This document shows, one piece after another, positions 25,293 to 56,645 of a stretch of DNA of 64,000 nt. This stretch comes from Candidatus Argoarchaeum ethanivorans. GTDB lineage: Archaea; Halobacteriota; Methanosarcinia; Methanosarcinales; EX4572-44. Where the stretch lies: NCBI GenBank assembly GCA_905067555.1, contig CAJHIS010000001.1, positions 8,611 through 72,610 of the forward strand, read 5' to 3'. The first letter of the stretch is position 1. Every line of letters begins with the position of its first letter. The notes beneath the pieces are model-generated. The model ran no database searches, was not told the DNA's origin, and worked only from the letters and a program-made list of their open reading frames with translations. Both the position numbers and the translations under genes were made by a program.

Positions 25293-27422
25293 CTAAAATA
25301 GGTGCAGTTTCTTGATGTTTTCAACGCTCCGTATTTCTTCATCCGGGTTGGATGGTGTTGGTGTTTGAACATTTTTATGCTTTAGATTGAAATCTGCGAT
25401 AATCACTTCTTCTCGACCTTCCTTAACCTCGCACAATTTATATGTCAGGTCTCCCGTGTCTTTGCATCCACCATCCACCAATGAGCTGAAATAGTTGTTG
25501 TTCAACTGCCCGAAGATCGATGTCCCGCCGTAGAGCCCTGTATTTGCAATCAGGATATAAGATGGGGTTCTTTCAACATGACTGTGTGCCTCGTTCTGAA
25601 ATCGTTCGTTTGCAGGGTTGAAGGCTGGGCAGAAGATCATATCAATATCGGTTCCTCTGAAGTAGTGGGCTAAATCGTCAAAGTCCCTGCAGATCAGTAT
25701 TATGAACTTGCCAAACTGGGTCTCGTATCTGTATACTGTGTCTCCAGGTATCATTCTTTCTTCTAGTTTCATTACTCCATCTTCAAAAGTCGATGGTCTG
25801 ATCTTTTGCTGGTGTGGTATATCACGATCAGATTCCATTATCAGCGGGCAGATATTCTTCTTGTCTTTATAGAAACTTCCACCGATAATAATCATGTCAG
25901 GATATTTGCTCTTGATCTCACTTATCCACTCTTCGCAGAGGCAGAGTTCAGGTAAGCAGACGATGTTTGCACCATCGTTCCTGGCTATCTCAAGTACTGA
26001 AAATATTTTTGTTTTTACCTCGTCTTTCTTTTTAATGATGAATGGGAATGATTTTGTAAGTTCAAAAGAGATTTGGGCTACGGCAATCCTGACAATCTCT
26101 TGTTTTGTCTTTGAGATATGCACGGTCTGAATTTTAGGGATGTAGGTGTTTTCCTGCACGTACCCAAGAACTCTGACGATTGCTGCGCCCCGTTCTCCAG
26201 GTTCCATATCTGTTAGATTCTTGAGCTGTTCACATGCGTCTACTTTTTTATTAGTTGGAAGATATTCACACCAACCTCTTGCAAAACCTGCCGTGTCGTC
26301 CAGCGCTGTCATTAGCGCCAATATGTCGTTTATGGGCAGCAGTTCCTTTGCAGATCTGGCAGTTTCGCGTCCAAGTTTTTCAAGCGGCGTTCCTTGCGTC
26401 TTCCTGCATACCGCTCTTGCCTTCTCAGGAATCTCAGGTATTATCTCTTTGATCTGTTCATCGATTATCGGCAGCCCTCGATGTAAAACTTGTGCTGCAC
26501 CGGGCGTCCCTTCTGCCGCGTCACCGATCAGGTCTGCGGCGCGGTCACAGTATTGTCGGTAGGTGTTGAGATGATGCTGTATGGTATCCAGATTTGCTTC
26601 TTGCACTTTGTGAGCTTCTGTTAGTGCGTTTGCGAGATTTTCTACTGCTTTAACGAGTGTTTCTTTGTTTTTTGATCCTTCTGATGCATTTTTTGCTTCT
26701 GTTAAGTATTCTTGGACTTCTTTTTCTGTTTTCTGTTTCTCGAATGTTATTGCGTAGAATGATCTGTAGAATGGGAGGCAGAATTTGGATGGGTTGGAAT
26801 ATCCTATCGCTTCTTTTGATGATTCTTCGAAGAATGAAATGGCATTTTTCATCTCTTCCCTGAACTCCTCTTCACTCTGTGCCTTGGTTGCCTTGAATAC
26901 GGACGCTTTGCCAAGAGAATGATTTGAACTCAGCCGCACCCAAACATCTTTGTCTCGTGTTAGTTTAATCAGGTCTTTCCACGCTGTGTCTCTGTCGGGA
27001 ACGTGTTGGAAGACAGAACCGAGTGCTTCTGCTGCTATCCTTCGCACATCATCGTCTTTGCTATGTGTTAGTTGGTGCAGGTCTTTCCATGCTGCCTTTT
27101 TATCTGGAACATGTTGAAATACAGAACCAAGTGCATCTGCTGCCCTCCACCGCACATACCCATTTTCGTCTTGTATTAGTTGAATCAGATCTTTCCATAC
27201 TTCTTTTTTATCTGGAACGTGTTGGAAGGCAGAACCAAGTGCATCTGCTGCCCTCCACCGCACACCACGGTTTTTGTCCTGTGTTAGTTTGTGCAGGTCT
27301 TCCCATGCTTTTTCTCTGTCAGGTAAATCTGCAAAATCACTGCGTAGCTGCTCCACCGCCAATCGGCGTTCCTCAATCTCAAAGCTTACGGTTTTCCTGT
27401 GAATCTCAGCCTGATCGACCAT
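25293..27422 (-). CDS. HEAT-repeat / carbon-nitrogen hydrolase (nitrilase superfamily) fusion protein
   Basis: The N-terminus has 4 PBS-lyase-type HEAT repeats of 36 aa (VRWRAADALGS.FQHVPDKK..WKDL). The C-terminal about 270 aa has the E-K-C pattern (CLPELCL ... QQKIRPS ... ILICRDF). Confidence 0.7.
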   Translation of the reverse strand: MVDQAEIHRKTVSFEIEERRLAVEQLRSDFADLPDREKAWEDLHKLTQDKNRGVRWRAADALGSAFQHVPDKKEVWKDLIQLIQDENGYVRWRAADALGSVFQHVPDKKAAWKDLHQLTHSKDDDVRRIAAEALGSVFQHVPDRDTAWKDLIKLTRDKDVWVRLSSNHSLGKASVFKATKAQSEEEFREEMKNAISFFEESSKEAIGYSNPSKFCLPFYRSFYAITFEKQKTEKEVQEYLTEAKNASEGSKNKETLVKAVENLANALTEAHKVQEANLDTIQHHLNTYRQYCDRAADLIGDAAEGTPGAAQVLHRGLPIIDEQIKEIIPEIPEKARAVCRKTQGTPLEKLGRETARSAKELLPINDILALMTALDDTAGFARGWCEYLPTNKKVDACEQLKNLTDMEPGERGAAIVRVLGYVQENTYIPKIQTVHISKTKQEIVRIAVAQISFELTKSFPFIIKKKDEVKTKIFSVLEIARNDGANIVCLPELCLCEEWISEIKSKYPDMIIIGGSFYKDKKNICPLIMESDRDIPHQQKIRPSTFEDGVMKLEERMIPGDTVYRYETQFGKFIILICRDFDDLAHYFRGTDIDMIFCPAFNPANERFQNEAHSHVERTPSYILIANTGLYGGTSIFGQLNNNYFSSLVDGGCKDTGDLTYKLCEVKEGREEVIIADFNLKHKNVQTPTPSNPDEEIRSVENIKKLHLF

Positions 27423-47314: not shown

Positions 47315-48121
47315 TTGGAGTTAAGTATGTCAGAAATTGGAAAAAATATTAGACTTGAGAGAATAATGGATCGAGAGAGCAGAAATATGGTAATCATCCC
47401 GATGGACCACGGTATTTCCATAGGTCCTGTTGCTGGTATTGTGAACCTGCCAGAGGCTGTTAACAAGGCAGCAGAAGGCGGCGCCAATGCTGTTCTCATG
47501 CAGAAAGGAATGGCAAAACATGGACATCGTGGGTATGGGCAGGACATAGGACTTATTATCCACATGAGTGCCTCAACAAGTCGTGCACCAGATCCTAATG
47601 ACAAAGTACAGGTGTGCACTGTCGAAGAAGCAATAAAACTCGGAGCAGATGCTGTTAGCGTTCATATTAACATTGGCTCTGAAACAGAATCCAAACAGCT
47701 TCGGAAACTCGGGATGGTCGCAGAAAGCTGTGATGCATGGGGAATGCCTTTAATTGCCATGATGTACCCTCGCGGGAAAAACGTCACAAACCAGAACGAT
47801 TCCGAACTCGTAGCACATGTTGCACGCGCCGGGGCAGAGCTTGGGGCAGACATTATCAAAACAAACTACACAGGCGACCCTGACAGCTTTAAAGACGTTG
47901 TTGCAGGATGCCCGGTTCCAGTGGTAATGGCTGGAGGACCAAAGGCAAACACTGACAGAGAGTTTCTTGAAATGGTGGCAGGTGCAATGAAAGGTGGTGC
48001 ACGCGGTGTCGCCATCGGGAGAAACGTGTTCCAGCATAAAAACCCAGCCGCAATGACCCGTGCTCTTACAAAAATAGTTCACAAAAGCACCACGGTAGAC
48101 AAAGCAATGGAGGAACTTTAA
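47315..48121 (+). CDS. class I aldolase family, ADH synthase (AroA')-like
   Basis: 268 aa DhnA/FbaB-type aldolase ([14 protein letters not shown]), directly followed by dehydroquinate synthase II. Confidence 0.75.
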
Positions 48122-48293
48122 GTGAAATACATCTGGATAAATTCAAACCCGTATCGCTTTGCGATGCGGAGATGCAAAGCAATGGAGGAACTTCATTGTG
48201 AAACACCTTTGGATAAATTCAAACCCGTATCGCTTTGCGATGCGGAAATACAAAGCAATGGAGGAACTTCATTGTGAAACACCTTTGGATAAA
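48100..48293. repeat. three copies of the aroA'/aroB' junction (about 42 bp) separated by two identical 33-bp hairpin inserts
   Basis: Junction copies at 48100-48141, 48175-48217 and 48251-48293. The inserts at 48142-48174 and 48218-48250 carry CCGTATCGC-TTT-GCGATGCGG. Confidence 0.9.
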
Positions 48294-49401: not shown

Positions 49402-49595
49402 GAGCTTGTTAGCTTTCGGAATATTGGGGGAAAATAAGAAATCCTCCAGACTTAATCTTCGATAATGTGAAGTCAGAGGATTTATATGCGAAGTGAGTTT
49501 GGATATAACGCCAATTTGAGTTGATATACGAACTTGAGTTTGGATAGATCTGAGTTGAGTAGAATGGCGGTTTGGACATTCATGAGGCGAATAAC

Positions 49596-50423
49596 ATGAG
49601 TAAGACAGAACATAAATTATATATCGGCAATGCTAAGCAAGAACTGCTTAATATAACGAATAATAGCATTCAATTAATTGTCACATCTCCACCTTATTGG
49701 AATGCACGAAATTATGAACATTCACAACAAATTGGCTTTAACGATACTTATGAAGAATATCTTAAGGCACTGGGACAGATATTTGAAGAGTGCGTAAGAG
49801 TACTTTTACCTGACGGAAAAATTGCATTGAATATCGGAAACATTTATAACAAAGATAATATCGAAAAAAGAACATATACGGTGAATCTAGTACTAGATTT
49901 ATGGAAAATTTTAAGTGAGTTTAAAGTGTTGAGATATATGGGTACGATTTTCTGGAAAAAAACCACTTCACGTAATGGAGCAGTTCTATTTGGAAGTTAT
50001 CCATATCCATCTAATTTTATGATTTCTACAGCATTGGAACCTATTCATGTCTTCAGGAAGATAGGTAAAAGAAAAATCCCCAAAGAGGTAAAAGAAAAAT
50101 CACGTATTTCAAAGGCAGAATTCAGAGAACTTAGAGAGCCAATTTGGTACTTAAATGGAACTAGTAAAAAGGCGCATCCAGCAGTATTCCCTAATGAGTT
50201 GCCTCATAGGCTGATTAAAATGTATTCTTTTTATGGTGATATTGTGTTGGATCCCTTTTGTGGCATCGGAACTGCAAATGTGGAGGCTCTTAGATTAGGT
50301 AGAGATTCTATAGGAATAGATGTAAGAGAAGATTATGTTGAAACAACAGTATCAAATTTAAAGAGAATAAAGGAACCTGCAGCCATATCGATATTTAATC
50401 ACGGAGAGGATATTTATGAGTAA
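49596..50423 (+). CDS. DNA methyltransferase, beta-class N4-cytosine/N6-adenine (SPPY motif)
   Basis: Motif IV VTSPPYW lies upstream of motif I LDPFCGIGT, which is the beta permutation. The ATG at 49596 is preferred over the track TTG at 49572. Confidence 0.85.
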   Translation: MSKTEHKLYIGNAKQELLNITNNSIQLIVTSPPYWNARNYEHSQQIGFNDTYEEYLKALGQIFEECVRVLLPDGKIALNIGNIYNKDNIEKRTYTVNLVLDLWKILSEFKVLRYMGTIFWKKTTSRNGAVLFGSYPYPSNFMISTALEPIHVFRKIGKRKIPKEVKEKSRISKAEFRELREPIWYLNGTSKKAHPAVFPNELPHRLIKMYSFYGDIVLDPFCGIGTANVEALRLGRDSIGIDVREDYVETTVSNLKRIKEPAAISIFNHGEDIYE

Positions 50424-51003
50424 CGATGAAATACCTAAAATAAAAACCATGGTAAGGCGATATAAATCTTCACTCCCAAAATTAACTATATTTATATTGG
50501 GTCCCGGTGAACATAACATCGATCCATATGCAAAGAAATGTTATAGCAAACGGTGTCAGATTAAAAATGAACTCGCACGCGACCATGATACCTTTTTTCT
50601 CGAAGAGATATATAACGAAGCAAGAAATGATGGAGTAGATGTTACCAATACACTTGACTTTGAAGATATTCTAATAAAAAAAGAGGCCGATACCGTCATT
50701 ATGATTTTTGTTCTAAATGCTACGGGACTTGAAGCAGAGCTAGTAGCATTTTCACGATGTCCAGAATTAGCAGAAAAAATGTGGGTATTTTACGATAGCA
50801 CTTACTACGAATTTGGTAATAAAAATTTTTGGCATGTTAATAGTGCTTTAGACTCAATAGAGGGACGTAATGGTAGAATTAAACCATTTACGGAAAGTGA
50901 GATTGATTCATGTTCATTATTAACAAGAGTTAAGAACATGATAGAGCAAAAGAGGAGGGCTCTTTCTATATTACCATACAAGAAGTATCAGGGGGTTGAG
51001 TAA
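50416..51003 (+). CDS. nucleoside 2-deoxyribosyltransferase-like (NDT/TIR-assemblage) protein
   Basis: 195 aa. IFILGPG (compare iYlAGP) and ADTVIMIFVLNATGLEAELVAF (compare aD.vva.......G...ElG.A) are present. It overlaps the MTase stop by 8 nt. Confidence 0.5.
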   Translation: MSNDEIPKIKTMVRRYKSSLPKLTIFILGPGEHNIDPYAKKCYSKRCQIKNELARDHDTFFLEEIYNEARNDGVDVTNTLDFEDILIKKEADTVIMIFVLNATGLEAELVAFSRCPELAEKMWVFYDSTYYEFGNKNFWHVNSALDSIEGRNGRIKPFTESEIDSCSLLTRVKNMIEQKRRALSILPYKKYQGVE

Positions 51004-53766
51004 ATGGTAGCTACAAGCAGTATAAAAAACATTTGGAAACTTCTGGAAAGATTTAAGGATGAATCAACCCTATTGATGAATGAGGATAATTTAGTAGTTC
51101 TTATTTATATTACCAAGCATGAGGGAATTGGGGTAGATGATTTAATAAAAAAATTAGATAAGCACATCATCCATGTAAAAGATAACGTAGTATTTTTGAA
51201 ATCTAACAGATTCATTATAGGAAAAAATAGTTTGATCTATGCTACCGAGAAGGGGGAAGAGATGGTTGACATAATTGAATATTCACAATATAAAATTGAC
51301 GATGTTCCAAAAGATATAATTTTGGGATATACTTTAGAAAAACCACCGTTAGGCATTGGTTCTACATCTTTTACCTTTAAAGCAGAAAGAAAGAAGATAA
51401 AAAATAAGGTCATAAAAATATTCAAACCTGGAATATTTGACCACATAGATTTTGACAAGAAAATAGAGGCATTACAACCGCTATCAAATCTCACCAATTT
51501 AGTTTTACCTGATGATTACGGGGATTTTGAATGGAATGATAGGGAATTTAGATATATTGTGATGAAATATATTAAAGGAAGAACTTTGAATGAGTTTCTT
51601 AATGAGAAAGTAGATATAGACTTAAGAAAGTTTATAGATAATTTTTTAAAAGAAGTAGGAAAAACGTTAGAAAAAGTAGAGAAATCAGGTTTAAATCATG
51701 GTGACCTTCACTCAAATAACATTTTAGTAGTTGAAGACGAGTTAGAAAAAGGCAAGAAGATATGCCACTTTCACATAATAGATTTCATGGGCATCAAATC
51801 AAACGAGGAATTCCGTGAATTTGAGCTTTCAGATTTTGAATATTTCAAACAACATCTCCTAAAAATAGTAAAAGTATATGCTTCTACTCCATCGGGAAAA
51901 CCTGATTTGAAAAAGTTGGGGGATAGATTTTACTACATAGTACAAAATCTGCAAAACGGAGAATATCATTCATTTAAGGATTTATTTGACGCACTTTCTG
52001 CGAAACTCCCTCCTCCTTCAAAATTAGGTAATATAAAGGAGCCACCGTTTAGTTTTATCAGATTTGAACAATACGACATTAATGATCCTCTGTGGCTTAG
52101 AAGGTTTGAAGTTGAGAATGCTTTGTATGCACCTATCAAACGATTTGACAATGTAATATGCTCAGGTCCAAGAGGATGTGGTAAGACTATTTACTTGAGG
52201 TCTTTAACTTTCGTTCCAAGATTAGTAAAATCAATCCAGAATGGGCCAGATAAATATCCTGAGGTGAAAGATAAGGTTGCATTTTTTGATAACATCTTCG
52301 GCATTTATTTTGCTTGCAGACAGGGAGAGTTTAAGTATTTCTCTGAAAAATACTTTAGATTTACACCTAAAACACAACTACTTATCAAACACATAATTGC
52401 GCTAAGAATCATTAAGAGGACGCTAAATTTAATAAACGATGGTTACACGGAGAGGGTACTATCGAGCGAGCCAAAAATAGAGTCAATCTTGAAATTTTTG
52501 ACTCAATATCTAAAGAGGGATCTTATGATGACTCCTGAAGCAAAAGAAAGACCATTTGAACAGTTGGATGGCATATTAAGCATTGAAGAAAACTATTGTG
52601 AAAGTATATTAGGTGAAGATGAGAATTATCCAGATATTAGCAAGATGTTAAATGAGCATTTATTAATTGATTTTTTCAGTGGTTTAAAAAATTCTGTTTC
52701 TGAGCTATCTAACATAAAATTTTATGTTATTTTTGATGATGTAAGCGATCCTCAGGTTCCTTTTGAATGCCAAAAAATTATCAATTCGTTTATGTCATGC
52801 CTTAACGAAATATATTGCTGTAAATTTTCAACAGAAAAATTTGCCTACACCTATGAAGATATGTCTGGTAAAACTTTGCAACCTACCAATGATTATACAT
52901 ATATGGACCTATCCTTCATGGGAGCGCCTGGGGATAGATACACTGATAAAATCTACAAACAATATTTAGGGAAGATAATTAATAAGCGCCTTGAAATAGC
53001 TAATCATAAACAGAATATCAATGGACTTTTAGGAAATTCGCCAGATTCTGCACAGAAATTGATAACTTTGCTCTCTGAATGCGCCAAGGGAAATCGAGAT
53101 GTATATAATAAAATTAAATTTGCTGGATGGGACTTGGTTATTCAGTTGTCTTCGAGGAGCGTGAGAGATGCTATTGCTATATGTGATTCAATCTTTAGAG
53201 AATGCGAAACTAAAAAAAATCTATCTGATGAAATAAAAGAAGGAAAAACAAAAATGCCAATAGAGATTCAGGATAGAGCCATTAGAAAACATTCTCTAGA
53301 AGAGTACAGGAGCTTACTGAATATTACATATCATGGTAGAGAAATCTTTAATATCGTTAGAAATTTTGGCGAAATATCTCGCAAGTATTTGGAGAAAGAG
53401 ATAACTAACGAGGAAGGCAGGAAATACGAAATGATTACAATAGAAAGGATCGATGCTAAAGAAATATCAGAAGATGCAAAAAAAATATTTAGAACATTAA
53501 TCCGTTATTCTGTTTTTTTAGATAGAGGTCTTTGTTTTTCCAGAGAGGAAATAGGATTGGTTCAAAAAATTACACTGCATAAAAAGTTTACACCGGCCCT
53601 GATGACAACTTACCGTGAAAGAGAGCATCTTCGATTATCAAAGGATAGATTAGAAAAATTCATTTTACATCCCGATGAATTTAGGCAGGAACTTATAACA
53701 GGGAAAAAAATAGATAAGCATCAATTAGAAATCTTTGATTTTTTAGAAGGTGATAGAAATGAGTAG
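51004..53766 (+). CDS. wHTH + atypical (RIO/Bud32-like) protein kinase + P-loop NTPase fusion protein
   Basis: 920 aa. Kinase motifs are GIGSTSFTF, VIKIFK, HGDLHSNNILV and IIDFMG. Walker A is GPRGCGKT and Walker B is FYVIFDDVSD. The ATG directly abuts the previous TAA. Confidence 0.65.
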   Translation: MVATSSIKNIWKLLERFKDESTLLMNEDNLVVLIYITKHEGIGVDDLIKKLDKHIIHVKDNVVFLKSNRFIIGKNSLIYATEKGEEMVDIIEYSQYKIDDVPKDIILGYTLEKPPLGIGSTSFTFKAERKKIKNKVIKIFKPGIFDHIDFDKKIEALQPLSNLTNLVLPDDYGDFEWNDREFRYIVMKYIKGRTLNEFLNEKVDIDLRKFIDNFLKEVGKTLEKVEKSGLNHGDLHSNNILVVEDELEKGKKICHFHIIDFMGIKSNEEFREFELSDFEYFKQHLLKIVKVYASTPSGKPDLKKLGDRFYYIVQNLQNGEYHSFKDLFDALSAKLPPPSKLGNIKEPPFSFIRFEQYDINDPLWLRRFEVENALYAPIKRFDNVICSGPRGCGKTIYLRSLTFVPRLVKSIQNGPDKYPEVKDKVAFFDNIFGIYFACRQGEFKYFSEKYFRFTPKTQLLIKHIIALRIIKRTLNLINDGYTERVLSSEPKIESILKFLTQYLKRDLMMTPEAKERPFEQLDGILSIEENYCESILGEDENYPDISKMLNEHLLIDFFSGLKNSVSELSNIKFYVIFDDVSDPQVPFECQKIINSFMSCLNEIYCCKFSTEKFAYTYEDMSGKTLQPTNDYTYMDLSFMGAPGDRYTDKIYKQYLGKIINKRLEIANHKQNINGLLGNSPDSAQKLITLLSECAKGNRDVYNKIKFAGWDLVIQLSSRSVRDAIAICDSIFRECETKKNLSDEIKEGKTKMPIEIQDRAIRKHSLEEYRSLLNITYHGREIFNIVRNFGEISRKYLEKEITNEEGRKYEMITIERIDAKEISEDAKKIFRTLIRYSVFLDRGLCFSREEIGLVQKITLHKKFTPALMTTYREREHLRLSKDRLEKFILHPDEFRQELITGKKIDKHQLEIFDFLEGDRNE

Positions 53767-54817
53767 TATAGACGAATTCAAACTAGAGTTTATAAAAGAA
53801 AGAAGTGACTCGCTTTATATTTGTGCAGCCGGATTCGAAGATAGATCTCGTGCTATCGTTGAAAGATTGAAAGACAGAAGGGAGAACTTTTTTAAATATT
53901 CTCTTATTCTTGAATATTCTGACACTAAGCATAAAGAATACAATAAACCCAATTTAGAATTTATCCAATCCACTTTACCCCAGATATCATGCCGTTTACT
54001 AGAAAACGCAATAGTTGATATAGACCATATTTATCAAATCAAGGCTAACATAATAGAAGCATTTAAAAGAATACCAATAGAAGATATTGGAACAGTTTTC
54101 ATAGATATATCGGGAATGGCCAATTCCCTGATATTACTAAGTGTACATCAAGCCAAAAAAAGGTTTTTGGGCAAGGAGATAGTAATATTATATGCGGAAG
54201 CGGACATTTACTACCCCTCTATAGAAAAAAGAGCCGAAATTAAAAGACTAATGAAAAGCGATGAGGAAGAGGATATATTAAAATTAGGTGATGAATTGGG
54301 CGCTTCTGGTACAAGAGAGGTGATAATTTTACCGGGTTTTAAAGGATATTTCACTGAGAATAAACCAATATGTCTCATATTCCTTGTTGGATATGAACCT
54401 TCAAGAGCTGCAGGGTTATTAGACACTTACCGTCCAAACATGGTAGTAGTGTGCTATGGAGGTTCTCCTCATGAAAAATTTGAATGGAGAAGAGATTTTT
54501 CAAAAGAACTGCATGTAGACTTGTTTAATAAATTTAATCATGTGGAGAGGGGTATCTCTACGTTTTATATATCCGAGATAGTTACTGAGTTGGATAAAAT
54601 ATACAAAAGCATTGAGAATAGTGGACACGAATTATATGAGTATTATAATGTAGCTATAACGCCTCAATGCAGTAAATTACAAACTATTGCGGCTTACTTA
54701 TTTTCCCAGATACATCCAGACGTGCAAATTGTCTTTTGCTTTCCAGGTAAATTTAATCCAGAAAGATATTCCAAAGGCGTAGGGAAAATATGGGTTTACA
54801 AATTACAAAATGTTTGA
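53759..54817 (+). CDS. tandem Rossmann-like protein, Csa3/CARF-like motifs in both halves
   Basis: Half 1 has LYICAAGFEDRSRAIVERL ... FIDISGMANSLILLSV. Half 2 has CLIFLVGYEPSRAAGLL ... VAITPQCSKLQTIAAYL. The ATG at 53759 is preceded by GGTGAT and overlaps the upstream TAG. The track uses GTG 53750. Confidence 0.45.
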   Translation: MSSIDEFKLEFIKERSDSLYICAAGFEDRSRAIVERLKDRRENFFKYSLILEYSDTKHKEYNKPNLEFIQSTLPQISCRLLENAIVDIDHIYQIKANIIEAFKRIPIEDIGTVFIDISGMANSLILLSVHQAKKRFLGKEIVILYAEADIYYPSIEKRAEIKRLMKSDEEEDILKLGDELGASGTREVIILPGFKGYFTENKPICLIFLVGYEPSRAAGLLDTYRPNMVVVCYGGSPHEKFEWRRDFSKELHVDLFNKFNHVERGISTFYISEIVTELDKIYKSIENSGHELYEYYNVAITPQCSKLQTIAAYLFSQIHPDVQIVFCFPGKFNPERYSKGVGKIWVYKLQNV

Positions 54818-54860
54818 CAAAACTGCCACTTCGCCTAACACAGCATATACAGTGCGGGCT

Positions 54861-54920
54861 TCATGCGTGTTCGGTTAAGAGACAAATCGTGATAAACCAG
54901 GGGAACACAATAAACTATTG
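54861..54920 (+). repeat. 60-bp direct repeat, copy A
   Basis: TCATGCGTGTTCGGTTAAGAGACAAATCGTGATAA...GGGGAACACAATAAACT recurs at 56586-56645. Confidence 0.85.
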
Positions 54921-55178: not shown

Positions 55179-55337
55179 ATGGCAATACGAACCTTTACCG
55201 CGGTTCTCCACAAGGAAGAAGATCTATACGTAGCAGAATGCCCTGAAGTTGGGATGGTTAGCCAGGGATACACTATCGAGGAAGCCATCGCCAATCTGAA
55301 AGAAGCGACAGAACTCTATCCGGTTTTGATGCCATAG
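55179..55337 (+). CDS. small HicB/UPF0150-like antitoxin
   Basis: 52 aa: MAIRTFTAVLHKEEDLYVAECPEVGMVSQGYTIEEAIANLKEATELY.... It is below the ORF-track length cut-off. Confidence 0.6.
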   Translation: MAIRTFTAVLHKEEDLYVAECPEVGMVSQGYTIEEAIANLKEATELYPVLMP

Positions 55338-56585: not shown

Positions 56586-56645
56586 TCATGCGTGTTTGGT
56601 TAAGAGACAAATCATGATAAGTTAGGGGAACACAATAAACTGTTA
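56586..56645 (+). repeat. 60-bp direct repeat, copy B
   Basis: Paralogue of 54861-54920, 45 nt from the 3' end of tRNA-Glu. Confidence 0.85.

Follow-up and report, generated by a model that had tools for sequence, protein, structure and literature searches.

The 64,000-nucleotide stretch of Candidatus Argoarchaeum ethanivorans DNA considered here (GenBank assembly GCA_905067555.1, contig CAJHIS010000001.1, positions 8,611 to 72,610 of the forward strand; hereafter, the window) carries an operon of four + strand open reading frames (ORFs) at 49596-54817, encoding a DNA methyltransferase (MTase; P1), a nucleoside deoxyribosyltransferase (NDT)-like protein (P2), a kinase-ATPase (P3) and a CARF-like protein (P4). 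In related loci of Archaea and Bacteria the invariant core is the P3 and P4 pair, accompanied by a swappable DNA-modification gene. We put at about even the chance that we are dealing with a copy of a defence module that is horizontally mobile, linked to DNA modification and of the abortive-infection type. The genes and domains on which this reading is built are the following:

49596-50423, + strand: P1, beta-class N6/N4 DNA methyltransferase, 275 aa (PF01555, E = 3.7e-42; PADLOC MTase_II, E = 5e-62)
50416-51003, + strand: P2, NDT-fold N-glycosidase-like protein, 195 aa (PADLOC NDT_II-A, E = 2.5e-7)
51004-53766, + strand: P3, winged helix-turn-helix (wHTH)-like, kinase and ORC/CDC6-like AAA+ protein, 920 aa (PADLOC CARF6--CARF_STK_AAA, E = 1.4e-14)
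51004-51303, + strand: P3 N-terminal domain, winged-helix-like, about residues 1-100 (three weak matches)
51349-51783, + strand: P3 protein-kinase-like core, Pfam-matched residues 116-260 (Pkinase, 6e-7; PK_Tyr_Ser-Thr, 2.5e-5)
52123-53631, + strand: P3 ORC/CDC6-like AAA+ module, residues 374-876 (PF24389, E = 3e-28)
53759-54817, + strand: P4, tandem Rossmann-like, CARF-like protein, 352 aa (PADLOC CARF6--CARF_CARF_CARF, PDLC01917, E = 1.3e-27)

Conserved core and exchangeable genes

Related loci were gathered by exact-protein look-ups, by a scan of GTDB species representatives with the P3 profile (30 loci) and by a metagenome scan with the P4 profile (292 relatives, of which the best 80 were used), and the genes at these loci were mapped with locally built hidden Markov models (HMMs). 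P3 lies directly upstream of P4, on the same strand, in 99 of 105 non-redundant P4 loci, and a DNA methyltransferase is present in 68 of the 74 loci with informative upstream sequence, proportions that should be read as indicative. The junctions overlap or fall within about 13 nt nearly everywhere. The same gene order and close coupling are met again in dozens of genomes that are not related to one another, so the linkage of the genes goes far beyond chance. The comparison of gene neighbourhoods proposed in a preliminary description of this DNA, which was made from the sequence alone, yielded both conserved linkage (P3 with P4, and the methyltransferase with both) and a defence-island context. 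The 74 informative loci are distributed as follows:

43 loci: PF01555 methyltransferase, P3 and P4 (three-gene form)
18 loci: SPPY methyltransferase, NDT-like gene, P3 and P4 (the form of the window)
5 loci: D12 Dam-like methyltransferase, NDT-like gene, P3 and P4
2 loci: methyltransferase convergent downstream (L004, where an NDT-like gene is also present, and L105)
2 loci: DruA homologue in the methyltransferase slot (E = 9e-77 and 9e-86)
1 locus: DndB-like/Hjc-like protein in the methyltransferase slot
2 loci: cut upstream
1 locus: destroyed by insertion sequence (IS) elements

The methyltransferase slot is filled by three classes of enzyme, namely beta SPPY, permuted SPPY and Dam-like D12, the permuted enzyme of the three-gene form having the motifs in reverse order and SPPY again. 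We considered an SPPY, N4-methylcytosine (m4C)-type methyltransferase as an obligatory component, which is true of two clades and is refuted by the D12 Dam-like enzyme of clade C and by the DruA and DndB-like replacements. The Dam-like enzyme of clade C shows, therefore, that the module is not bound to a single modification chemistry. The DruA homologues (PF14236) stand right upstream of the kinase-ATPase gene in two independent loci (L014, 4420-5853; L124, 451-1740), and this placement suggests that DruA and DNA methyltransferases are able to fill the same functional slot. In L078 (654-4161) the slot holds a 763-aa DndB-like/Hjc-like protein, followed by an NDT-like fusion protein.

The preliminary description had taken all four genes as the unit; the comparison narrows this to P3 and P4, with the NDT-like gene as an accessory that is confined to two clades and to about one-third of the loci. 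Where it occurs, P3 always bears an N-terminal extension, present in 21 of 21 NDT-bearing loci and in none of the 29 NDT-free ones; correspondingly, the catalytic loop of the kinase lies at residues ~232-256 in all of the former and at ~147-173 in all of the latter. The gain or loss of P2 together with this extension therefore argues for a direct coupling of P2 and P3.

An exhaustive profile search returned 2,636 P4 clusters at 50% identity (E <= 1e-3), of which 480 at E <= 1e-30; P3 has 45 full-length homologous clusters at 42-83% identity, plus distant ones, and a hypothetical protein recorded for Candidatus Argoarchaeum ethanivorans matches it at 100% identity; the P2 family is far rarer than that of P4, with 20 clusters at 90% identity. 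Archaeal hosts comprise Methanoperedens, Bathyarchaeia, Methanophagales, ANME-2, haloarchaea, Methanocorpusculum, Thermoplasmatota and Promethearchaeota (Asgard), and bacterial hosts WOR-3, Patescibacteria, Ignavibacteriae, Scalindua, Thermodesulfobacteriota, Lachnospiraceae, Oscillospiraceae, Izemoplasmatales, Verrucomicrobiales, Victivallaceae and Hyphomicrobiales, as well as a Bradyrhizobium plasmid. On this plasmid the kinase and the ATPase are separate genes, RefSeq names all the proteins 'hypothetical protein', and thyX follows the locus. Only 3 matches to P4 were obtained on plasmids; none was found in 50,697 phage records or in IMG/VR, and a fold search of viral structures gave generic Rossmann matches only.

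Several relatives lie among defence genes. L039 is flanked on one side by McrBC, an SNF2 helicase and DUF1016, and on the other by DUF1156, GmrSD-Schlafen, an AAA_15/21 ATPase, DUF4276 and DUF499; L037 adjoins a 1,774-aa Mrr-ResIII protein, HicB and a HEPN-NTase pair; L005 adjoins an MjaI restriction-modification (R-M) system, HNH, NucS and a UvrD-like helicase; L077 adjoins a Type III R-M system and a PDC-S36/TmtA-like gene; L076 adjoins HerA; and L003, as the window itself, adjoins toxin-antitoxin pairs. No hidden nuclease or fifth gene emerged as a recurrent family from an all-against-all clustering of the neighbours.

The preliminary description had noted that the block is more AT-rich than its surroundings, and it is indeed the most AT-rich ~5 kb of the window: its guanine-plus-cytosine (GC) content is 33.0%, compared with 41.7 +/- 2.5% in other windows of equal length (z = -3.4; the minimum of the 64 kb), and GC at third codon positions is 25-29% in the operon genes versus 42-45% in the adjacent aro genes. 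The two 60-nt lines whose GC had earlier been counted by hand at about 22% and about 62% gave 21.7% and 61.7% on recounting. Given this anomaly, flanks that are different in every genome and copies disrupted by IS elements, the cassette is predicted from sequence to be horizontally acquired and mobile. In L038 (6903-8156; a 4.6-Mb metagenome-derived, chromosome-scale contig) and in L026 (4802-5695 and 8295-9719; the complete Halosimplex aquaticum chromosome), transposases (Transposase_mut; IS1595, IS66) split or flank the kinase-ATPase and CARF-like genes, and these two loci are decaying copies of the system.

The four predicted proteins

The domain assignments of the preliminary description held for all four proteins. 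P1, described there as an SPPY beta-class DNA methyltransferase, matches PF01555 and PADLOC MTase_II and has the motif order of that class, with motif IV (SPPY, 49686-49697) preceding motif I (DPFCGIG). Gene calls made independently on other assemblies of this organism agree with a start at ATG 49596. The best relative of solved structure is a Thermus 'putative modification methylase' (1e-42); other full-length solved relatives are the DNA cytosine-N4 methyltransferases 8s9m/8s9n, and M.PvuII was aligned over the C-terminal motif I region only. The SPPY motif is a sign of N4-cytosine methyltransferases and, together with the nearest relatives, indicates that P1 is probably an m4C enzyme.

P3 is the largest of the four proteins, and the earlier assignment of wHTH, kinase and P-loop NTPase domains within its 920 aa was borne out by the Pkinase and PF24389 matches, with the winged-helix part weak. 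The N-terminal domain has weak matches to a transcriptional regulator (phrog_11046, 4.5e-5), to the Pfam families F-93_WHD (0.012) and CggR_N (0.025) and to PADLOC WH_III-A (0.006). The kinase core retains the invariant residues of the G-loop (G117/G119), K138, H232-G-D234, N239 and D260-F-G263, has weaker matches to Bud32/RIO/ABC1/Kdo models and, through its family profile, matches ULK1, CK2, PknA and other kinases, down to 3e-21. Since only the N-lobe through the DFG motif is matched, the C-lobe would be short or divergent. In the ATPase module, Walker A (GPRGCGKT, 52165-52188) contains an Arg within the P-loop (R390, invariant in both deep clades), and Walker B corresponds to D578-D579. The kinase and Walker motifs are invariant among relatives at 20-80% identity, and we propose that P3 would act as the central sensor and switch of the module.

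For P4, the description as a double CARF-like protein is in agreement with HMMs, a structural model and fold searches, an assignment of moderate strength. Ten PADLOC 'CARF6--CARF_CARF_CARF' models match the protein (best, 1.3e-27), and its AlphaFold2 (AF2) model (pLDDT 93.4, pTM 0.93) comprises two Rossmann-like domains, ending with the second one. Foldseek matched this model with probability 1.0 to Can1 (6sce, TMq 0.45), Csm6, Can2, Csa3 and the ring nuclease Sis0455; Can1 carries two CARF domains in a single chain. Relatives of P4 have sub-threshold Pfam matches to HFX_2341_N and CARF_Card1, and a PDB search found no solved-structure relative of P4 by sequence. P4 would be a Can1-like pseudo-dimer of CARF-like domains, and is proposed to be a ligand sensor or regulator partnered with P3.

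Domain fusions bear on this role. Proteins related to P4 are fused to a calcineurin-like phosphoesterase (Metallophos), to a histidine kinase (HisKA and HATPase_c, with P4 as the N-terminal input) and to a thymidylate-kinase-like domain; examples are found in L020 (8190-10319), in L117 (4655-6775) and in the proteins P0226, P0283 and P0129. On a Spirosoma plasmid, a lone P4-like gene stands beside a PAS kinase and a response regulator. Moreover, a single PADLOC model spanning P3-like and P4-like regions (PDLC01925) aligns to both P3 (1.4e-14) and P4 (2.4e-9). The sensor role is proposed because P4-like domains occupy the input position of a histidine kinase and lie beside the PAS kinase and response regulator, and because a fused P3-P4 model exists.

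P2 had been called an NDT-like Rossmannoid, and PADLOC, NCBIfam, a PDB profile search and Foldseek on the AF2 model concur, although a Pfam profile search gave no match. The NCBIfam match is to the retron St85 effector (STM3845; E = 2.6e-7, 30.6 bits against a family cut-off of 100), and the PDB profile match is to the retron Ec86 effector (E = 7e-4). The AF2 model (pLDDT 90.6) has the retron-Eco1 effector as its top Foldseek match (probability 1.0, TMq 0.54-0.57), followed by DNPH1, MilB, NDTs and CD38. The motif G104-x-x-x-E108 is conserved, with the Glu codon at 50737-50739, and the invariant E108 aligns with E106 of the Ec86 effector, the residue changed in the 'inactive effector E106A' structure 8qbl. 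The retron-Eco1 N-glycosidase effector hydrolyses NAD(P)+ (PMC12673091), and by analogy P2 would be an NAD(P)+ or nucleotide N-glycosidase. Restricted to two clades, always paired with the P3 extension and once fused to a nuclease-like domain, it looks like an add-on, an accessory effector. In L078, the P2 homologue has an N-terminal, nuclease-like domain matching LmuA (3e-11) and the Avs2 N-terminus (2.5e-10); because of this fusion, we regard the P2 slot as an effector slot. We also considered a split retron effector, in which P2 and the P3 N-terminal domain would correspond to the NDT and DNA-binding parts of Ec86, and rejected it, the concatenate having matched only positions 15-114 of the NDT_II-A model. 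The P2 homologues P0169-P0182 carry PF28093 in precomputed annotation, so that a label for the NDT-like P2 family may already be in place.

Proposed mechanism, rival explanations and known systems

As a defence module, the operon could work in three steps. The methyltransferase, whose gene, motifs and linkage are evident, would mark host DNA as self, probably with m4C. The ORC/CDC6-type ATPase of P3, together with the N-terminal winged-helix-like domain in the variant of the window, would then engage DNA and read its state, and P4 would bind a nucleotide-type ligand or otherwise gate P3; evident at this step are the folds, the intact catalytic motifs, the obligate adjacency of P3 and P4, and the fusions. 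Finally, activation would switch on the kinase and, in the four-gene variant, the P2 N-glycosidase as well; taking the retron-Eco1 effector as a guide, P2 may hydrolyse NAD(P)+ or some nucleotide, leading to arrest of the infected cell. In the three-gene relatives, which are devoid of P2, the output would be the kinase itself or the phosphoesterase fused to P4. Methylation-gated immunity is a reasonable, though putative, reading of these sequences. The preliminary description suggested nucleotide-signal-dependent immunity; a scheme in which the NDT/TIR enzyme makes the signal read by the CARF protein is unlikely as a general logic, since two-thirds of the informative loci have P4 without an NDT-like gene. 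A defence or selfish module is favoured over a core regulator because of the patchy spread, the foreign composition, the swappable methyltransferase or DruA, the effector add-on, the defence islands and the decay by IS elements.

Several points weigh against this interpretation. The function proposed for the family is drawn from sequence, folds and context. No maker of a CARF ligand (cyclase, Cas10 or CD-NTase) that could supply P4 with a signal is linked to the genes in any locus. The CARF call itself relies on HMMs named by others and on moderate Foldseek E values (~1e-4 to 1e-5), Foldseek matched Rossmann proteins of a generic kind as well, and the two halves of P4 align weakly with each other (hhalign E = 0.024). 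With respect to P3, the wHTH call depends on three weak matches; the kinase matches kinase profiles only from the G-loop to the DFG motif; a PDB sequence search returned no solved structure related to the ATPase module beyond the P-loop; and DNA binding by this module is assumed from the name of its Pfam family. Some loci, including L001 and L040, are flanked by housekeeping genes, and the census is not unbiased, as loci were retrieved via conserved peptide patterns and with the best-80 cut-off.

A wider claim, which we hold tentatively and with less than even confidence, is that the P3/P4 pair would represent a class of CARF-based immune switches that is large (~2,600 P4 clusters at 50% identity), spans Archaea and Bacteria and works independently of a cyclase, and in which the ORC-like AAA+/kinase reads a modification state set by a swappable partner (m4C MTase, N6-methyladenine (m6A) MTase, DruA or a DndB-like protein) under CARF-like gating, and cell death or arrest is brought about by plug-in effectors, either the kinase by itself or an NDT-type NADase to which a nuclease may be added. 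Such a logic would be distinct from R-M, BREX, DISARM and type III CRISPR signalling.

Among the rival explanations, the most probable one keeps the same parts and changes their logic. In a Pgl-like inversion, modified invader DNA would trigger the kinase/ATPase, as proposed for Streptomyces Pgl; in an addiction module, the methyltransferase would be the antidote, its loss would unleash P2 and the kinase, and the cassette would mainly stabilise itself. Type 2 BREX/Pgl systems combine a methyltransferase, a Ser/Thr kinase and an ORC/Cdc6-clade ATPase, and are methylation-linked with no classical restriction enzyme (PMC12839542). The operon of the window holds the same combination of methyltransferase, Ser/Thr kinase and ORC-like ATPase; the cassette is mobile, foreign in composition and adjoins toxin-antitoxin genes, and it contains no nuclease that could simply restrict unmodified DNA. 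However, neither PglZ, a BrxC/PglY-type (DUF499-type) ATPase nor PglX was matched by the four proteins (Pfam, PADLOC) or found in the flanks within the window, the methyltransferase of the family is a small, type II-like PF01555 or D12 enzyme and not PglX-like, kinase and ATPase form one polypeptide, and the CARF-like partner is obligatory. In addition, an antidote model does not sit well with the loci where DruA or a DndB-like gene replaces the methyltransferase, and the sequence gives nothing to tell inverted logic from ordinary self-marking. We consider this explanation unlikely.

Unlikely too, in our view, is a CARF effector acting in trans, in which P4 would sense cyclic oligoadenylates or further cyclic nucleotides supplied by a type III CRISPR or a CBASS system at another place in the genome, P3 and P2 would be the outputs, and the methyltransferase a hitch-hiking or regulatory partner. 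The fold of P4 matches cyclic oligoadenylate-binding Can1, Csm6, Can2 and Csa3, the type III ancillary Can1 having two CARF-like Rossmann domains per chain as P4 does; PADLOC groups the family with CARF proteins, and P3 weakly matches the type III-associated kinase model C3a189. Nevertheless, neighbour clustering and Pfam-annotated neighbourhoods revealed no cas10, cyclase or CRISPR array by any of the ~105 loci, the window is without an array, and the near-universal linkage to a methyltransferase would be left unexplained. Furthermore, a 2014 survey already noted that some CARF families are unlinked to cas genes (PMC4012209); two of these, 'DET1451' and 'MA0186', are candidate equivalents of P4. 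P4 also differs from the CARF effectors of type III CRISPR in having no fused nuclease or effector domain, except for Metallophos in a few relatives, and in a Pfam CARF similarity that is sub-threshold. As to CBASS, Pycsar and Thoeris, no cyclase, cas or TIR gene occurs in the annotated neighbourhoods.

It is quite improbable that the operon is a non-defence epigenetic or signalling module, with an orphan-like methyltransferase controlled by, or controlling, a kinase/ATPase pair with CARF-like input and regulating host gene expression or replication. The two-component settings of P4-like domains (the histidine-kinase fusion, and the gene beside a PAS kinase with a response regulator), the housekeeping surroundings of some loci and the ORC/CDC6-like nature of the ATPase would agree with it; the patchy cross-domain distribution with flanks differing per genome, the foreign composition, the interchangeable methyltransferase classes and DruA, the effector-type NDT/nuclease add-on, the repeated placement in defence islands and the IS-mediated decay speak against it.

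The alternative offered in the preliminary description, a DNA base hypermodification in which the NDT-like enzyme would exchange or remove bases and the kinase would activate a base or DNA position, is very improbable. In its favour, the NDT fold is shared by base-exchanging transferases and by the hmCMP glycosidase MilB, a thymidylate-kinase-like domain is joined to one P4 homologue, and thyX comes after the locus on the Bradyrhizobium plasmid. Against it, the NDT-like gene is missing from most loci, the closest structural relative of P2 is a toxic NAD(P)+ hydrolase effector, the fusion partner in L078 is an LmuA/Avs2-type nuclease-like effector domain and not a biosynthetic one, the kinase is of the protein-kinase type and not a P-loop nucleotide or DNA kinase, and no transferase, glycosylase or precursor-synthesis gene is recurrent nearby.

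Pfam and PADLOC searches agree with the earlier statement that the block contains no nuclease, PglZ, BrxC, cyclase or Cas gene, and no named system fits it, as had also been stated; the term 'undescribed' was, however, too strong, since a fused kinase-AAA+-CARF family has been in print since 2014 (PMC4012209) and the 'CARF6' models of PADLOC-DB, which presumably derive from a 2020 classification of CARF proteins, match P3 and P4. Makarova et al. (2014) described a 'small family' of fused Zn-ribbon, S/T/Y-kinase, AAA+, CARF and wHTH domains and suggested kinase-mediated signal transduction (PMC4012209). This family shares with P3/P4 the combination of kinase, AAA+ and CARF, the kinase motifs of P3 being intact, and the peculiar Walker A with an Arg within the P-loop (GPRGCGKT in P3). 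On the other hand, the CARF-like protein of the window is a separate gene, P3 has no Zn ribbon (its first 120 residues are cysteine-free, and winged-helix-like instead), and no wHTH follows the CARF-like domains of P4. The 2014 text on this family makes no mention of a methyltransferase, an NDT-like gene or a defence-system context (PMC4012209), and both the 2014 family and the 'CARF6' models are catalogue entries, not a defined or tested system.

With the effectors of type II-A retrons (Eco1/Ec86 and Sen2/St85), P2 has in common the fold, the G-x-x-x-E motif and the aligned catalytic Glu. Nonetheless, there is no reverse transcriptase (RT) among the genes of the operon and its flanks, no msr/msd RNA (Rfam found only tRNAs in the window), P2 is without the C-terminal DNA-binding domain of the effector, and its partner is a kinase-ATPase and not an RT-msDNA complex. 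The P3 kinase matches many PD-T4-6 models (down to 6e-11) and mad6 (3.6e-5, kinase core only), and MADS is methylation-associated, like the module of the window; but these are generic kinase core matches, PD-T4-6, Stk2 and MADS Mad6 are not known to have an ORC-like ATPase fusion or a CARF-like partner, the NCBIfam antiphage_MADS6 model scores 17.2 bits against a cut-off of 460, and no other mad genes are found at the locus in the window. Compared with type II R-M systems, the methyltransferase is present and the operon has no restriction nuclease, nor is any nuclease family recurrent in the neighbourhoods. DruA is a component of one type of Druantia, while type II Druantia requires DruM, a methylase. 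A DruA homologue takes the methyltransferase slot in two loci of the present family, with no DruE helicase or other Druantia gene, and the locus of the window has a methyltransferase and not DruA.

Literature searches, whose reach excluded the 2020 CARF classification, found no publication naming this gene set, and papers on BREX diversity, CoCoNuTs, CRISPR classification and ternary conflict systems do not describe it. In the accessible literature, four aspects appear to be undescribed: the near-universal pairing with a methyltransferase of interchangeable class; its replacement by DruA or DndB-like proteins; the variant with an NDT-type effector, with which the P3 N-terminal domain co-varies; and how large the family is and how far it extends across Archaea and Bacteria. 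In brief, the kinase-ATPase-CARF core has already been catalogued by bioinformaticians, and the operon is a well-founded candidate system and not a wholly unmapped entity.

If the module is a working defence system, CARF-type sensors would act outside CRISPR/CBASS signalling, with no linked cyclase, and an ORC/Cdc6-like ATPase fused to a eukaryotic-type kinase could be an immune switch tied to DNA methylation. With its three or four genes, it would further serve as a compact model of how nuclease-free, methylation-linked systems of the BREX/Pgl kind work, and would place retron-type NAD(P)+-glycosidase effectors under a new controller that needs no RT. The exchange of the methyltransferase with DruA and DndB-like proteins could illuminate these poorly understood defence components, in a family that is widespread among Archaea (ANME/Methanoperedens, Bathyarchaeia, haloarchaea, Asgard) and Bacteria (Patescibacteria, WOR-3, Lachnospiraceae, rhizobial plasmids).

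Setting of the operon in the window

The four same-strand ORFs are coupled exactly as first described, and all junctions agree. The P2 ATG at 50416 overlaps the methyltransferase TAA (50421-23) by 8 nt (ATGAGTAA at 50416-23), TAA and ATG abut between P2 and P3 (51001-51006), and the P4 ATG at 53759 overlaps the P3 TAG at 53764-66 (ATGAGTAG at 53759-66). The borders first given for the block have to be moved: the left one (49437) falls in intergenic DNA, the methyltransferase ATG being at 49596 (275 aa), and the right one (54920) falls where an unrelated 59-nt direct repeat ends, the operon stopping at 54817. Its placement between aro genes and a toxin-antitoxin/tRNA region was correctly recognised. 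The flanking and upstream features are:

upstream flank: Pab1020-type RNA ligase, DeoC-family aldolase (archaeal AroA') and DHQS-II
49402-49595, + strand: intergenic/promoter region with short direct repeats and a TATA-like element
49481-49488: TATA-like TTTATATG, assigned by eye
49494 and 49535: short direct repeat upstream of the methyltransferase, TGAGTTTGGATA
49514 and 49548: short direct repeats, ATTTGAGTTGA/ATCTGAGTTGA
49570: short direct repeat, GTTTGGACAT
downstream flank: HicA/HicB, then tRNA-Glu and tRNA-Gln at 56.7 kb

A conserved upstream operator was considered and set aside, as the repeats at 49494-49579 are not kept in related loci; a role of these repeats as an operator of this one copy would be speculative.

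The 59-nt direct repeat, 90% identical between its copies at 54861-54919 and 56586-56644, brackets a 1.67-kb HicA/HicB region that also holds a 52-aa HicB-like remnant ORF (55179-55334), and its second copy lies ~45 nt past the 3' end of tRNA-Glu. The repeat pair looks like an att-type or target-site duplication left by a small toxin-antitoxin cassette inserting by the tRNA pair. In two other assemblies of the same organism (L041 and L042), the island is an isolated ~6-kb contig broken at both island borders, which may reflect strain heterogeneity for the island, or flanking repeats. Upstream of the operon, a 76-bp tandem repeat (48099-48293; 2.6 copies, 92% identical) is made of duplicated sequence from the 3' end of the DeoC/AroA' gene and the adjoining intergenic DNA, and extends into the TTG listed as the start of the DHQS-II ORF. 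Elsewhere in the window, in-frame tandem repeats occur within large minus-strand ORFs at 167-665 (141 bp x 3.5, 91%) and at 26970-27309 (108 bp x 3.1, 78%).

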